From an uncultured cyanobacterium (GTDB taxonomy: Bacteria; Cyanobacteriota; Cyanobacteriia; Cyanobacteriales; CAWCAG01), in NCBI GenBank assembly GCA_963803805.1, contig CAWDOD010000002.1:96001-160000 (forward strand): a stretch of 64,000 nucleotides of DNA. Reading direction: 5' to 3'. Positions 25,493 through 59,601 of the stretch are shown here, in pieces. Made by a program: the position numbers and the translations under genes. A model generated the notes under the pieces. The model had not been told where the DNA came from and made no database searches. It saw only the letters and a list, made by a program, of their open reading frames with translations. Within the stretch, counting starts at the first letter, position 1; every line of letters starts with the position of its first letter.

Positions 25493-26878
<1,386 letters not shown>

Positions 26879-26886
26879 CTATTAAC

Positions 26887-26965
26887 AGCTTCCCTACGCT
26901 GGTATTAGCCAGTCTCAGGTTCTAAGGGACTATCTCAGCCTGAACAATTCAAGGCACCCCTAGCT
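26887..26965 (-). promoter_or_regulatory. TPP riboswitch (THI element)
   Basis: Minus strand reads AGCTAGGGGTGCC...GGCTGAGATAGTCCCTTAGAACCTGAGACTGGCTAATACCAGCGTAGGGAAGCT, ending just before the thiC RBS. Confidence 0.96.
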
Positions 26966-27124
26966 TGTATAAATAATGATTGTATTACTGTTTTTTCGAT
27001 TTGCAAAGAAAATTTAGTTATTTTTTAAGCAGCATCAAGTAAAAAGCGATAAGCTAATTGCTAGTTGCTAAAATCTTAGACTTGGTGAGGATATTTTATT
27101 GATTAGGGTACTCTAAATTGATAA

Positions 27125-49116: not shown

Positions 49117-49123
49117 GCTTGCA

Positions 49124-49190
49124 GTGTGAGGAGTTAAACAGAAAAGCGCTTGGGGTCGAAACATGGCAAGACTCCCAAGCGCTTTTCTAT
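49124..49190 (+). ncRNA. yfr2: Yfr2-family (Cyano-1) small RNA
   Basis: 5' GTGTGAGGAGTTAAACA, then a long stem GAAAAGCGCTTGGG/CCCAAGCGCTTTTC with GAAACATGG in the loop. Confidence 0.82.
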
Positions 49191-56486: not shown

Positions 56487-57365
56487 TTAAACTTTAATGA
56501 TTGCTTTTACTCTTTGTAGAAACTCTTTAGTTAAGCTATAAAAAGCTTTTGCCCCGGAAGATTGAGGATCATTAAGGACGACAGGTTTAAATTCGTCTAC
56601 AGCTTGGGCAACTGCAACATTAACAGGAATTTCTGTAGTGAAAAGTTTATCTTCTCCGAACTCTGCCCCTAAACGCTTTTTAATCTTAGGAGCCATTTTC
56701 GTCGCATGACCTCTAGAATTAAACAAGATACCAATTAAATTAATTTGACTGCGATCGCTCTTTTTTAATTGTTGGATTCTTCCTTCTAAAATACCAACAC
56801 CAATTACTGATAAAGGTTCAGGTTTGGCAGGAACAAGATAGAAGTTGCTAGCGAGGATGCCACTACGGGTTAGTAAATGATCTCCTGGGGGAAAGTCTAA
56901 CAAAACAAAATCATATTCATCTATTACAGGTTCAAGAATTTTTTTGATTAATTGATCCTCAAGTTTCTGCCAATTACGTTCAAATTCTTGCAGGTTTCCT
57001 TGAGATTGAGAATAAATAACTGCCGCTATATAAAAGTCATTATAAAGTTCAATATCTCCCGGTAACAAATCAAAACCAGGAATCTGACAAATATCACGCT
57101 TAATAACTTCTTGAGTAGAAAGATAATTTTGATTATTTGGTTGAATAATTTGGTTAATTAAGGTTCTTAAGGTGAATTTTTCTTTCTTTAATTTAGTGAA
57201 ATACAAAGGTGGTAACAGACTTAGGGTAGCGTTAATTTGCATATCTAAATCTACTACCAAAACTTTTTTAGCAAAGTCTTTAGCTAAACAGGTGGCTAAG
57301 TTAACCGTAACGGTGGTTTTGCCTACGCCGCCTTTCATATTAACAATAGAAACTACAGATCCCAT
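56487..57365 (-). CDS. ParA/Soj family ATPase, second paralogue
   Basis: NMKGGVGKTT, VDLDMQ, LDFPP. Confidence 0.92.
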   Translation of the reverse strand: MGSVVSIVNMKGGVGKTTVTVNLATCLAKDFAKKVLVVDLDMQINATLSLLPPLYFTKLKKEKFTLRTLINQIIQPNNQNYLSTQEVIKRDICQIPGFDLLPGDIELYNDFYIAAVIYSQSQGNLQEFERNWQKLEDQLIKKILEPVIDEYDFVLLDFPPGDHLLTRSGILASNFYLVPAKPEPLSVIGVGILEGRIQQLKKSDRSQINLIGILFNSRGHATKMAPKIKKRLGAEFGEDKLFTTEIPVNVAVAQAVDEFKPVVLNDPQSSGAKAFYSLTKEFLQRVKAIIKV

Positions 57366-58015
57366 TTATGTGTGGTTTCGGGTAAGGGGTAAAGGGCTAA
57401 GGACAATCTTCAAGTCTAAAAACTATCTCTCAAATAAATCTGTTCGAGAATCTTCTCTTCAATGCTTAAGGTTGTTTGCATAACTAATTAAACTCAACGG
57501 TACTCGCTAAAATCATTTCTCGCTAAAATCATTTTAAGCTGATTTTCCCGTTGATTGAGGGGATTTTTGCTTTTAAAGAAGTTTGCGATGATCGCAACTT
57601 AGCTCAGCTACAGAAATTGTCTTGCTCTTTTCTCCCTTGACATAGTATTATGTATAGGGTGGAAAAGGCGCGCTTCTAAAAACCCTTTTTCAAAAGCATT
57701 TTTTTGATTCTTTTCAGTTGCTGACAAAAGTTACAATAATAAGGGAAAGTTTTTTATTTATTAGCGCCGGTTTTATGGTATTCTTTCTTTTAAAGAAAAA
57801 ATTTTACAATGGGAATAGTTGCGTTTGTTTTCAATAGTCAACACTCCCATTATGACATTAAAATTAAATTTACCACAAAATCGCGTCTTAAATTCGTTTA
57901 AATTCCTCTTCTTTACTAAAATTGATTAATACTGGGGAAACAAAGGTTTCCTCTTTTTAATTCGCATTGAAAGTTTCATGCACTTCGTGTCAGGTAAAGG
58001 GTAAAAGAGTAGATA

Positions 58016-58289
58016 ATGAGAAGGGTATTAATTTGCCAAAATCGCACCTGTGTGAAGGCTGGTGCAAAAGAGGTTTTAGCTGCTTTCAGGGCTGATTTGG
58101 TAACTGATGTAGAAATCGTTGCTAGTGGTTGTTTGGGTCAATGTGGCAATTGGACCAATGGTTTTGGTTGAATCGGAAATGGTTTGGTATTGTCGGGTTA
58201 GCCCCACAGAAGTCCCGGCATTGGTAGAAAGGCATTTGCGGAGAAGTCAGCCTTTGAAAAGAATGTTGTATCGTAAGTTTCATCCCTAG
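58016..58289 (+). CDS. Thioredoxin-like [2Fe-2S] ferredoxin with one extra T (missed by the ORF track)
   Basis: MRRVLICQNRTCVKAG...SGCLGQCGN-[t at 58150/58151]-GPMVLV..WYCRVSPTEVPALVERHL..YRKFHP*. Confidence 0.87.
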
Positions 58290-58530
58290 CAAAAACAGCA
58301 ACCCCGTCTGATGTGCTAAGGAATTTCCTCTCATTTATTAATATTAAACAGAGCCGTTTTTCAGCTCCCTTAATTACCAAATATTGGGAAATATTAGCTT
58401 CCAGTTAAGTTGCTGTTTTTGATTTAACGAGACAGATGTTGAGTTTGACTTTGACAGCGCCTTCGACTCCTGAGTTCAACTGTTTACCTAGCGCTTGTTA
58501 TCTGCCAGGGAAGCAATCTCTTACTTCATC
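58290..58530 (-). ncRNA. Candidate large structured non-coding RNA, unassigned
   Basis: Several stems, including a perfect 13-bp long-range pairing. G-U pairs favour the minus strand. No credible ORF. Confidence 0.5.
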
Positions 58531-58658
58531 TACAAACTTAGCATTATTTTTCCTTGTTTTTTATTAACTAAACTAAAATTCATGTTTATAACTATATTTA
58601 CTTATGTTAATGTAAACATAAATGAAGTTAATAGGATTTTTACTAGTTAAGAACAGTT

Positions 58659-59601
58659 CTAGTTAATATGTAAATTCATAAATAAAGTTATTAAAAAAAT
58701 CAATAAACTAGGAATTATTAATAAATAAAAGGCTGGTTTAAGACGAAATATAGTAAAGGTTAATCCTAGAACTTTGAGATCGAAGATAGAGCCAAAAAGT
58801 AAAAAAGCTAGTATGGAGCCATTATCAAAACTAGAAGTAAAGAAATTAGCGAAAAAAGCATTAACAGTCGAGCCTATGGAAATGACTGTGCTGAGGGCTA
58901 ACATAGACAGAAGGGAAGTAACAGGCCCTTGGGCAAAATTTAGTATAGTTAAGGGAGGAACCAAAACTTGAATTAAAGCAGCGATTCGCACAAATCAAGA
59001 CAAGAATGCTTCCTAATTCCCTTGACTCTTTTAGAAAATTGTCAAGAAAAAGATTTAAGTTATGACTAAAAAACTTTTCTTTTCTATCTCCGGTTTTGTT
59101 TGGTTCTGCTGAGGTAAAAGTAGCGCAACGAAGTAAATTAGCCGCATATTCCGGCGAATTAGCCGTAGCTAAAAAAGATTTTGTCCCTAAATTAGCTTTA
59201 AAAAGATAACCAACCAACGTAGCGATGGCCACAGCAAAAATCACTCTCAACGTAACCAGTTGTGGTTGAGCCTGAAAAGCCACCCAAGTCGAATAAAGTG
59301 TAAAAGGATTAATCGTCGGCGCTCCTAAGAAGAAACCAATAGCTAGGGGGGCAGAAACTCCTTGGGTTAACAACCGCCGTACTACGGGGATATTACCATA
59401 CTTGCATACCGGTAGCACTAACCCTAGACAACTACCCAAAAAAGCTGCTAAAAAAGGATTGCGCGGACAAAAGGAAGATAAGGAGCGCTGTTCTCCTAAC
59501 ACAAGCAGTAAACTTGAGATGGCAATCCCTAACAACAGGAAGGGAAGTGCCTCGAAAAGTAAACTCAAAAATAGAGTAGGAGCATTATTCAACAGAGTCA
59601 T
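58659..59601 (-). CDS. DUF318/ArsP-type permease with one extra base
   Basis: EALPFL, LPVCKYGNIP, APTINP, FLLFGSIFDLK; frame change near 58985. Confidence 0.85.

Follow-up and report, generated by a model that had tools for sequence, protein, structure and literature searches.

The 64,000-nucleotide stretch of DNA considered here (the window) comes from an uncultured cyanobacterium of the order Cyanobacteriales (GTDB lineage CAWCAG01; GenBank assembly GCA_963803805.1, contig CAWDOD010000002.1, forward-strand positions 96,001 to 160,000), and the element of interest lies in the spacer between a split ArsP_1-type permease gene on the minus strand and a split ferredoxin-like open reading frame (ORF) on the plus strand. 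A first-pass annotation of the sequence had placed in this spacer a candidate non-coding RNA of about 240 nt, read from the minus strand and containing either a long-range pseudoknot or a two-state switch. That observation is largely right, whilst the pseudoknot or switch is not supported. What the interval encodes is a member of a family of structured RNAs, 234-297 nt in length and widespread in cyanobacteria, with the minus strand as the RNA strand. The whole predicted RNA takes up 58290..58528 (-), approximately 239 nt, from a putative start at ~58528 to the U-run of a terminator helix at ~58291, with these ends set by the family alignment. An nhmmer profile of the family covers 58268-58551 of the window (E=1e-34), and a covariance model of the 5' domain, called R1 here, covers 58394-58530 and scores the window copy at 65.6 bits (E=5.7e-14).

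Folding energy alone is modest evidence and only suggestive, with the minus strand folding at -69.2 kcal/mol (z=-2.64, 4 of 200 shuffles being as good) and the plus strand having a z of -1.79. It is homology that is decisive for the element being more than chance, and what it reveals is a structured RNA that is both genuine and conserved. The RNA is single-copy in its own genome by BLAST, and the family profile likewise gives one match there; in a genome of the same genus BLAST finds a copy at 86% identity, and in other families of the order it finds short, weak matches that share two motifs. An exact pattern built from these two motifs was used to collect relatives and is found in at least 119 stretches of named cyanobacterial genomes, with Nostoc, Fischerella, Calothrix, Microcoleus, Leptolyngbya-type strains, Acaryochloris, Spirulina, Pleurocapsa, Prochloron, Richelia and Raphidiopsis among the genera. 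Many genera outside the Nostocales are included, as are the unicellular strains Cyanothece sp. BG0011 and 'Unicellular cyanobacterium SU3'. From all loci 133 complete units were taken, with 5 units at contig edges dropped, and these contain 132 distinct RNAs. Their lengths run from 234 to 297 nt (median 266 nt), the copy in the window being among the shortest at 241 nt in the alignment. It should be kept in mind that all but one of the 132 sequences (131) came through selection or filtering with a pattern in which the motifs of the two helices termed P1 and P2 below are included.

The distribution of the family was followed with R1, which describes 126 positions and 17 base pairs and was built from 62 diverse sequences. 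Within a sample of the order R1 matches 115 of 151 genomes (E<=0.001), 108 of the 142 genomes of good quality and 66 of 80 genera, with no match in some families of the order (labelled f2, f22 and f13; 0/7, 0/5 and 0/2 genomes). In a phylum-wide sample of 151 genomes there are matches in 41 (E<=1e-4), all of which belong to the same class; 37 are in the order, the genome of the window included, and the other orders of the class contribute 4 of 10 genomes, with zero matches in the sampled genomes of other classes. In the family that holds a named Microcoleus genome, R1 reaches E<=0.01 in 85 of 101 genomes, with many of the matches being weak. Copies of the RNA also occur on three Nostoc plasmid records, one of which, from Nostoc cf. 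commune SO-36 (L167 = NZ_AP025733.1:242757-249023), has three places of the RNA in stretches without a listed gene; as the gene table of this plasmid holds no RNA genes at all, nothing about annotation follows from this.

The fold of the family was derived from a MAFFT alignment of the 132 sequences. RNAalifold recovers the helices P1, P2 and P3 from this alignment, P2a, P4 and P5 were added with conserved anchors as a guide, and all pairs were then counted, giving 51 pairs in 11 helices. Cells that can pair make up 91.2%, compared with 36.9-47.0% in controls in which the pairing partners were shifted by 1-3 columns, and the covariation score is 0.238 compared with 0.049-0.078 in the slid controls. 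Changes on both sides of a pair occur in 34 pairs and 424 cells, the means after shuffling being 23.8 and 138, with the observed values reached by 0 of 500 shuffles. These totals slightly understate the support, as one pair was entered as 245/368 in place of the intended 245/369, which is G-C in 125 of the 132. The fold consists of P1, followed by P2 with P2a inside it, followed by a long bulged hairpin formed by P3, P4 and P5 that is based on a long-range helix, and it contains no pseudoknot.

P1 is a 5'-terminal hairpin (58510..58527, minus strand, as are all the helices) in which GAAGU (58527-58523) pairs across a loop with GCUUC (58514-58510); 99.7% of its cells are paired, and divergent members found with the model have the compensatory forms GAAGU/ACUUC and GAGG/CCUC. 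P2 (58431..58506) pairs GGCAGAU (58506-58500) with AUCUGUC (58437-58431) and encloses P2a, where ACAAGCGC (ACA-A-GCGC, 58498-58491) pairs with GCGCUGU (58460-58454). All 132 sequences pair in P2, albeit in a set selected by pattern, and in members found with the model the form GGCAGAC/GUCUGUC occurs; P2a is 93-94% paired, with pair 58/122 being CG in 107 sequences and UA in 8. Both P1 and P2 hardly vary among the 132 sequences. The long-range helix P3 is formed by a 5' arm, CAAAAACAGCAAC (58409..58421), and a 3' arm, GUUGCUGUUUUUG (58290..58302), and all 10 of its 10 alignment pairs have changed on both sides, pair 188/441 for example being AU in 70 and GC in 44. The same is true for 13 of 13 alignment pairs of P4 (58315..58398), which has a lower part of GCUAA (58398-58394) with UUAGC (58319-58315), where the family consensus is GCUGA/UCAGC, and an upper part of AUUUCC (58392-58387) with GGAAAU (58328-58323); here pair 209/420 is CG in 82 and UA in 15, and pair 212/418 is GC in 69, AU in 11 and UA in 9. 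The last hairpin, P5 (58349..58369), has the form GGGAGCUG-AAAAA-CGGCUCUG and is shortened in the window, whereas relatives have an extended helix of 40-90 nt; in the window sequence by itself it reads GGGAGCUG-AAAAA-CGGCUCU at 58369-58350, and a motif scan picks it out as terminator-like. Its pairs 244/370 (AU in 72, GC in 57) and 283/365 (UA in 51, CG in 44, AU in 8) also change on both sides.

It is apparent that four of the five stems read from the single sequence were seen correctly. The stem GGCAGAU/AUCUGUC (P2), the stem ACA-A-GCGCU (P2a, ACAGC/GCUGU), the 13-bp long-range pairing of 58421-58409 with 58302-58290 (P3) and the 3' hairpin (P5) are all present in the window and conserved in the family, and the helices P3, P4 and P5 covary strongly. 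The choice of strand also stands, because frequent G-U pairs (38/151, GU in 111 of the 132; 242/374, GU in 71) fit only the minus strand of the window. What the family does not bear out is an outer stem, GCUUCC/GGAAGC, that was proposed to enclose one arm of the 13-bp helix together with the nested helices, so that the 13-bp helix would be either a long-range pseudoknot or one state of a switch. In the window sequence alone GCUUCC (58514-58509) can indeed pair with GGAAGC (58402-58397). However, the six pairs are complete in 3 of the 132 sequences only, column pair 33/205 is C-A in 111, and both strands are occupied by conserved helices, with GCUUC pairing with GAAG(U) (58527-58523) in P1 and GGAAGC being part of P4. 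Folded singly for minimum free energy, the copy in the window likewise forms P1 and P3 and not the outer stem. With no outer stem around the 13-bp helix and the nested helices no pseudoknot is required, and all 11 supported helices nest. The sole candidate for an alternative pairing, GCUGUU of P2a with AACAGC in the 5' arm of P3, has a C-A mismatch in 70 of the 132 (arm AACAACA, pair 188/441), and thus no conserved alternative pairing was found, although no systematic search for alternative folds was made. A pseudoknot or two-state switch in which the 13-bp helix competes with the outer stem is extremely improbable.

Sequence conservation is not limited to the RNA itself. Upstream of it lies an extended -10 box, TGcTAAGTT (58535..58543, -), the family form of which, TGnTAnnnT, is found in 100 of 133 units; in 84 of them 7 nt separate the end of the hexamer from the GAAG of P1. 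Further out, at about -59 to -43, there is a conserved upstream element (58564..58583, -) with the consensus GTAAA-GTTTA-GTTTC across the 133 units, which has the strict form GTAWANTTTNGTT in 42 of 133 and is present in the window as a degenerate copy, ATGAATTTTAGTTTAGTTAA; the stretch between this element and the -10 box is poorly conserved. A 16-mer of the upstream element (<=2 mismatches) is mildly above a reversed control in 4 of 5 genomes (e.g. 18 vs 6, 11 vs 7), a result which is uninformative. At the other end, a run of at least 3 T at or after the 3' arm of P3 is found in 113 of 132 sequences and of at least 4 T in 74 of 132. With a G+C-containing stem and a U-run P3 has the make-up of an intrinsic terminator, an atypical one as it encloses ~105-190 nt, and a motif scan for loops of 3-8 nt did not call it as a terminator. 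Transcription would start at ~58528 from the extended -10 promoter and would end at ~58291 in the U-run. The 3' arm lies directly against the stop codon (58287-58289) of the convergent ORF on the plus strand, so that P3 probably terminates both transcription units. The proposal of an independently transcribed structured RNA is thus upheld as far as the conserved minus-strand fold and a promoter box of its own are concerned, with the transcription itself being read from signals in the sequence. That this is a real, independently transcribed and conserved non-coding RNA can be held with high confidence.

Tandem arrays of the RNA, with up to 9 units (e.g. G137:C3:1407216-1410242; G067:C1), are found in some genomes. 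In the genome with 9 matches, the 7 listed are spaced by ~340 nt or multiples thereof, and most arrays have a repeat period of ~340-500 bp. In two of the arrays (L008, L011) the promoter box is repeated in each unit. Two genomes have composite repeats of ~830 bp (L147, G211:C181:47300-48600; L148, G193:C204:12533-13950), each with two or three divergent subtypes of the unit, some of which lack P1 and the 5' arm of P2 yet keep AAGGAGGU, GCUGUU and AUCUGUCUC. In a further genome (G058) the 8 matches, 7 of them listed, lie across different contigs and are dispersed copies.

No credible ORF lies within the RNA interval, as the first-pass annotation had stated. The frames in the window are short and unconserved (ORF list), whilst the longest ATG-initiated ORF in the 132 sequences has a median length of 12 aa, has no fixed position and is missing altogether from 10. 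A small protein gene was ruled out by this median together with spacers whose lengths differ by amounts other than multiples of three.

The neighbouring genes are those that had been described, although each is split into two frames and the name 'ferredoxin' comes from sub-threshold Pfam matches only (DUF1450, E=0.0026; Suc_Fer-like, E=0.0017). The convergent neighbour, a thioredoxin-like ferredoxin-type ORF (58016..58289, +), consists of the overlapping frames 58016-58171 and 58119-58289 (ORF list), with the break, judged by eye, being one extra T near 58150. In the genome of the same genus (L002) only about the last 8 codons of this ORF are left beside the RNA. The split may reflect gene decay or an assembly error. 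The upstream neighbour, the ArsP_1-type permease (58659..59601, -), has the frames 58861-59601 and 58659-58991, which match Pfam PF03773 over profile positions 2-184 (E=8.1e-36) and 188-293 (E=3.5e-15), and is either a frameshifted gene or the product of a sequencing error. Two genes from the RNA there is a gene for a ParA/MinD-type P-loop ATPase (56487-57365, -; AAA_31 E=6.3e-34, CbiA E=4e-19).

The RNA does not belong to a known Rfam family, again as first proposed. Scanning the whole window with Rfam 15 (4227 models, gathering threshold) gave no match at the locus, and in E-value mode the region 58100-58750 gave noise only (E>=1.5); 16 member loci (86 kb) gave 0 matches and 16 further loci, in E-value mode, no recurrent family. 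Elsewhere in the window the same scan identified a TPP riboswitch (26874-26971, -; 67.5 bits) and a Cyano-1 RNA (49120-49190, +; 53.1 bits).

Of the known cyanobacterial RNAs, PsrR1 (SyR1) is alike in being a free-standing small RNA (sRNA) gene with its own promoter and a Rho-independent terminator, found in several morphological groups according to PMC6596454. It is 131 nt in Synechocystis and is set apart by its Rfam model and by the position of its promoter element. The model, given as RF02701 in PMC12873609, has no match at the locus or at 32 other member loci, and nowhere in the genome does it score above 25 bits (on contig C9), where the cut-off is 42 bits. The RpaB site (HLR1) of PsrR1 is described as spanning -35 to -10 (PMC6525291), not -59 to -43 as does the upstream element here. 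Identity with PsrR1 was ruled out by model score and promoter geometry.

The 6S RNA is alike in its length of ~200-260 nt, its long irregular helix and its large internal loops, whereas the present RNA has in addition a 5' domain and a hairpin close to the promoter. The 6S model (RF00013) matches the genome at C10:571059-571241 (90.6 bits) and not at the RNA locus, and as the canonical 6S gene sits elsewhere this identity was also ruled out. For the heterocyst-specific NsiR1 the model (RF02399) gives no match, apart from one locus in which a sub-threshold score of 24.9 bits (cut-off 39 bits) falls upstream of the RNA, and NsiR1 is far shorter, ~60 nt (a 60-position model) compared with ~260 nt. 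The two are alike in that sRNA genes are arranged head-to-tail, each with its own promoter, as a title cited in PMC4734099 indicates for NsiR1.

A different comparison is with Trichodesmium erythraeum IMS101, for which Pfreundt et al. 2014 (PMC4143802) describe a Northern-confirmed non-coding RNA of ~260 nt from seven tandem repeats that accounts for 44.7% of primary reads and is the most abundant primary transcript; its authors report no similarity to other genomes. The likeness is one of description only, in the length of ~260 nt, the tandem repeats and the unassigned function, and the published repeat period of 736-973 bp is longer than the ~340-500 bp of most arrays here, although the composite repeats of two genomes reach ~830 bp. 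Among the R1 matches listed for the Microcoleus-containing family, none is at the published coordinates of the Trichodesmium array.

As to what the RNA might do, a feature of note is the apical loop of P2a, which contains a Shine-Dalgarno-like AGGAGU (58466..58471, -; family consensus AAGAGGUAAA). Within the family the loop is a near-invariant GAGGU, and a GAGG or GGAG motif lies between the arms of P2 in 124 of the 132 sequences, a motif which is absent from the selection pattern. In divergent subtypes the loop becomes AAGGAGGU, a full Shine-Dalgarno sequence, and this loop, GCUGUU and AUCUGUCUCGU are retained even in units that lack P1 and the P2 5' arm. The GAGGU loop and AUCUGUCUCGU are conserved unpaired stretches, the latter being kept even in subtypes without its pairing partner. 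The spacer after the Shine-Dalgarno-like motif varies in length by 1-4 nt and therefore no reading frame is conserved. Furthermore, the downstream gene is convergent in the window, hence the RNA is free-standing there and must act in trans or as a ribonucleoprotein.

It might be assumed that the invariant 5' domain and the Shine-Dalgarno mimic would bind a partner, which could be the 3' end of 16S rRNA on the 30S subunit or else some protein able to recognise Shine-Dalgarno regions, with the 3' rod providing stability and termination. In many relatives the RNA unit may in addition double as a terminator-gated leader for the next gene. Taken as a whole, a free-standing conserved structured RNA that acts in trans, with Shine-Dalgarno mimicry as the likeliest mode, is the best explanation and a reasonably probable one. 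The mimicry as such, a trans-acting RNA that works through a false ribosome-binding site, is put forward tentatively.

A number of points weigh against this explanation. Both ends of the RNA have been placed from conserved sequence signals only, and a scan of 57900-58900 for sigma-70 consensus -35/-10 elements found no pair. The invariance of P1 and P2 is partly built in by the way the sequences were selected. The window copy is itself atypical in its degenerate upstream element, its short P5 and its score of 65.6 bits, where most relatives have ~80-120. The proposed mimicry draws on one conserved loop motif, and the protein known to read motifs of this kind, CsrA (PF02599), has no match in the genome of the window, which is 97.4% complete, whilst control genomes matched as expected. 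Lastly, there are relatives with a same-strand gene close behind the RNA, an arrangement that fits a cis leader as well as a trans RNA.

The main rival to a trans-acting role is indeed an origin as a cis-regulatory leader, a riboswitch or a protein-binding attenuator that would gate an ancestral 255-aa gene, the window copy being an orphan relic. The genes downstream were counted at 83 loci with at least 1 kb of downstream sequence, taking the nearest ORF of at least 120 aa, and this ORF shares the strand of the RNA at 58 loci, of which 33 have it within 150 nt, and is convergent at 25, as it is in the window. One and the same conserved ORF, of 255 aa, comes after the RNA on its strand at 24 of 88 loci (e.g. 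L015:3279-4046), with a gap from RNA end to ORF start of 24-116 nt in ten of 11 loci and of 344 nt in one; by hand count 19 genomes, among the matches listed, have the RNA less than 1 kb upstream of this gene on the same strand. The U-runs, which are weak in many members (4 T or more in only 74 of 132), and the ~150 nt between the terminator arms should allow read-through. Some terminator tails have an AAAGGGA-type ribosome-binding site directly after the U-run, and a gene so placed must therefore be transcribed by read-through. The order of promoter, structured RNA, terminator and same-strand gene resembles that of terminator-gated leaders and of 'actuatons', which are described as an sRNA gene upstream of a coding region (Kopf & Hess 2015, PMC6596454), although the next gene in the window is convergent, so that the RNA is not the 5' untranslated region of a same-strand gene and there is none for it to drive. 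The phyletic patterns also disagree. The 255-aa protein, which starts MxIIALxAWYLxxYEPI, is found in 104 of 151 genomes of the order, yet in the families f20 and f8 the RNA is present in 6/6 and 2/2 genomes and the protein in 0/6 and 0/2, whilst in f2 and f22 the RNA is in 0/7 and 0/5 and the protein in 7/7 and 5/5, a mismatch by which an obligate partnership of the two was ruled out. The genome of the window has its 255-aa gene on another contig (G000:C6:120875-121636, -) with no copy of the RNA beside it. Moreover, in the arrays L008 and L011 the units each have their own promoter box, unlike tandem riboswitches, and a window copy that is 86% identical to that of the sister species is therefore not decaying. 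A leader origin is thus considered unlikely, though not negligible. The 255-aa protein itself has no Pfam or NCBIfam family, with only a sub-threshold Pfam match to Nuc_deoxyrib_tr (E=0.0054); it has 1561 homologues (E<=1e-40), the best 120 of which are listed as 'hypothetical', 'uncharacterized' or without a name, and its AlphaFold model is poor (mean pLDDT 57.4), with no Foldseek match against the PDB at E<=0.001.

Two further explanations concern what the RNA, or the DNA, might be if neither mimicry nor a leader is involved. The RNA could be an abundant protein-binding decoy, either a second 6S-like RNA that binds RNA polymerase through two bubbles of the P3-P4-P5 hairpin or a sponge for a translational regulator that reads GGA/GAGG. 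In favour of this, the rod of the 3' domain has two large internal loops, motifs of the GAGG type are seen in the loop of P2a, at the base of P5, in the 3' strand of P4 and, in Nostoc sequences, at the P4-P3 junction, and the gene is found in tandem copies with up to 9 matches in one genome. Some sponge RNAs likewise have multiplied gene copies. The sponges CsrB and RsmZ are alike in their GGA/GAGG motifs, of which a hairpin loop displays one, and in being multiplied in some genomes, but they share no sequence similarity with the present RNA, in whose conserved fold only one of the four GAGG motifs is clearly unpaired and the other three lie in helices. There is, furthermore, no CsrA match in the genome, no partner protein that is consistently adjacent or co-occurring, and no match of the 6S model at the locus in a genome with a canonical 6S gene, all of which makes a decoy of this kind rather improbable. 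More remote still is a repeat at the level of DNA, whether a MITE-like mobile element or a mere bidirectional terminator between convergent genes. A 13-bp inverted repeat does lie between convergent ORFs, and there are genomes with dispersed copies (G058) as well as the three Nostoc plasmids that carry the RNA. The many dispersed copies that the first-pass annotation had named as the sign of a MITE are not seen in the genome of the window, where BLAST and profile searches find one copy, and because of this single copy the window element is not a MITE. In addition, the conserved unit reaches 120 nt upstream of the inverted repeat with the promoter box at a fixed distance, the helices covary and keep G-U pairs, which would be C-A on the other strand, and a collection of viral contigs has 0 matches to the exact pattern. 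A DNA repeat can hardly be entertained.

The family appears to be undescribed. In the literature exact 13-14-nt motifs gave 3 unrelated papers, and keywords led to no description or name for it, within a search that did not extend to the supplements of the Nostoc and Nodularia transcriptome studies and of the Nostoc sRNA prediction, the 202-genome database or Georg et al. 2014. It may sit among the 409 unnamed candidates that a 2026 survey of 202 cyanobacterial genomes is stated to contain (PMC12873609).

In terms of annotation, the RNA accounts for a 'gene-less' spacer of 370 bp and provides a putative terminator for two convergent transcription units. For further work the family offers concrete handles in its Shine-Dalgarno-like loop, its tandem amplification and its recurrent place before a conserved 255-aa gene, and it is directly testable in genetically tractable strains of Nostoc and Leptolyngbya. 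A bolder extension of the proposed Shine-Dalgarno mimicry is that the whole class could be a decoy for the ribosome, with the loop imitating a ribosome-binding site and titrating 30S subunits or a regulator that reads Shine-Dalgarno sequences, with tandem amplification serving dosage and the Trichodesmium RNA of ~260 nt perhaps being of the same kind; as a reading of the sequences this is a long shot. If it were true, this would give a phylum that lacks CsrA a functional equivalent of CsrB. Whatever its mode of action, an RNA that is present in around three in every four genomes sampled from the main order of cyanobacteria, and yet has no Rfam entry, represents a gap in the inventory of regulatory RNAs of organisms that are used in research on photosynthesis, nitrogen fixation and biotechnology.

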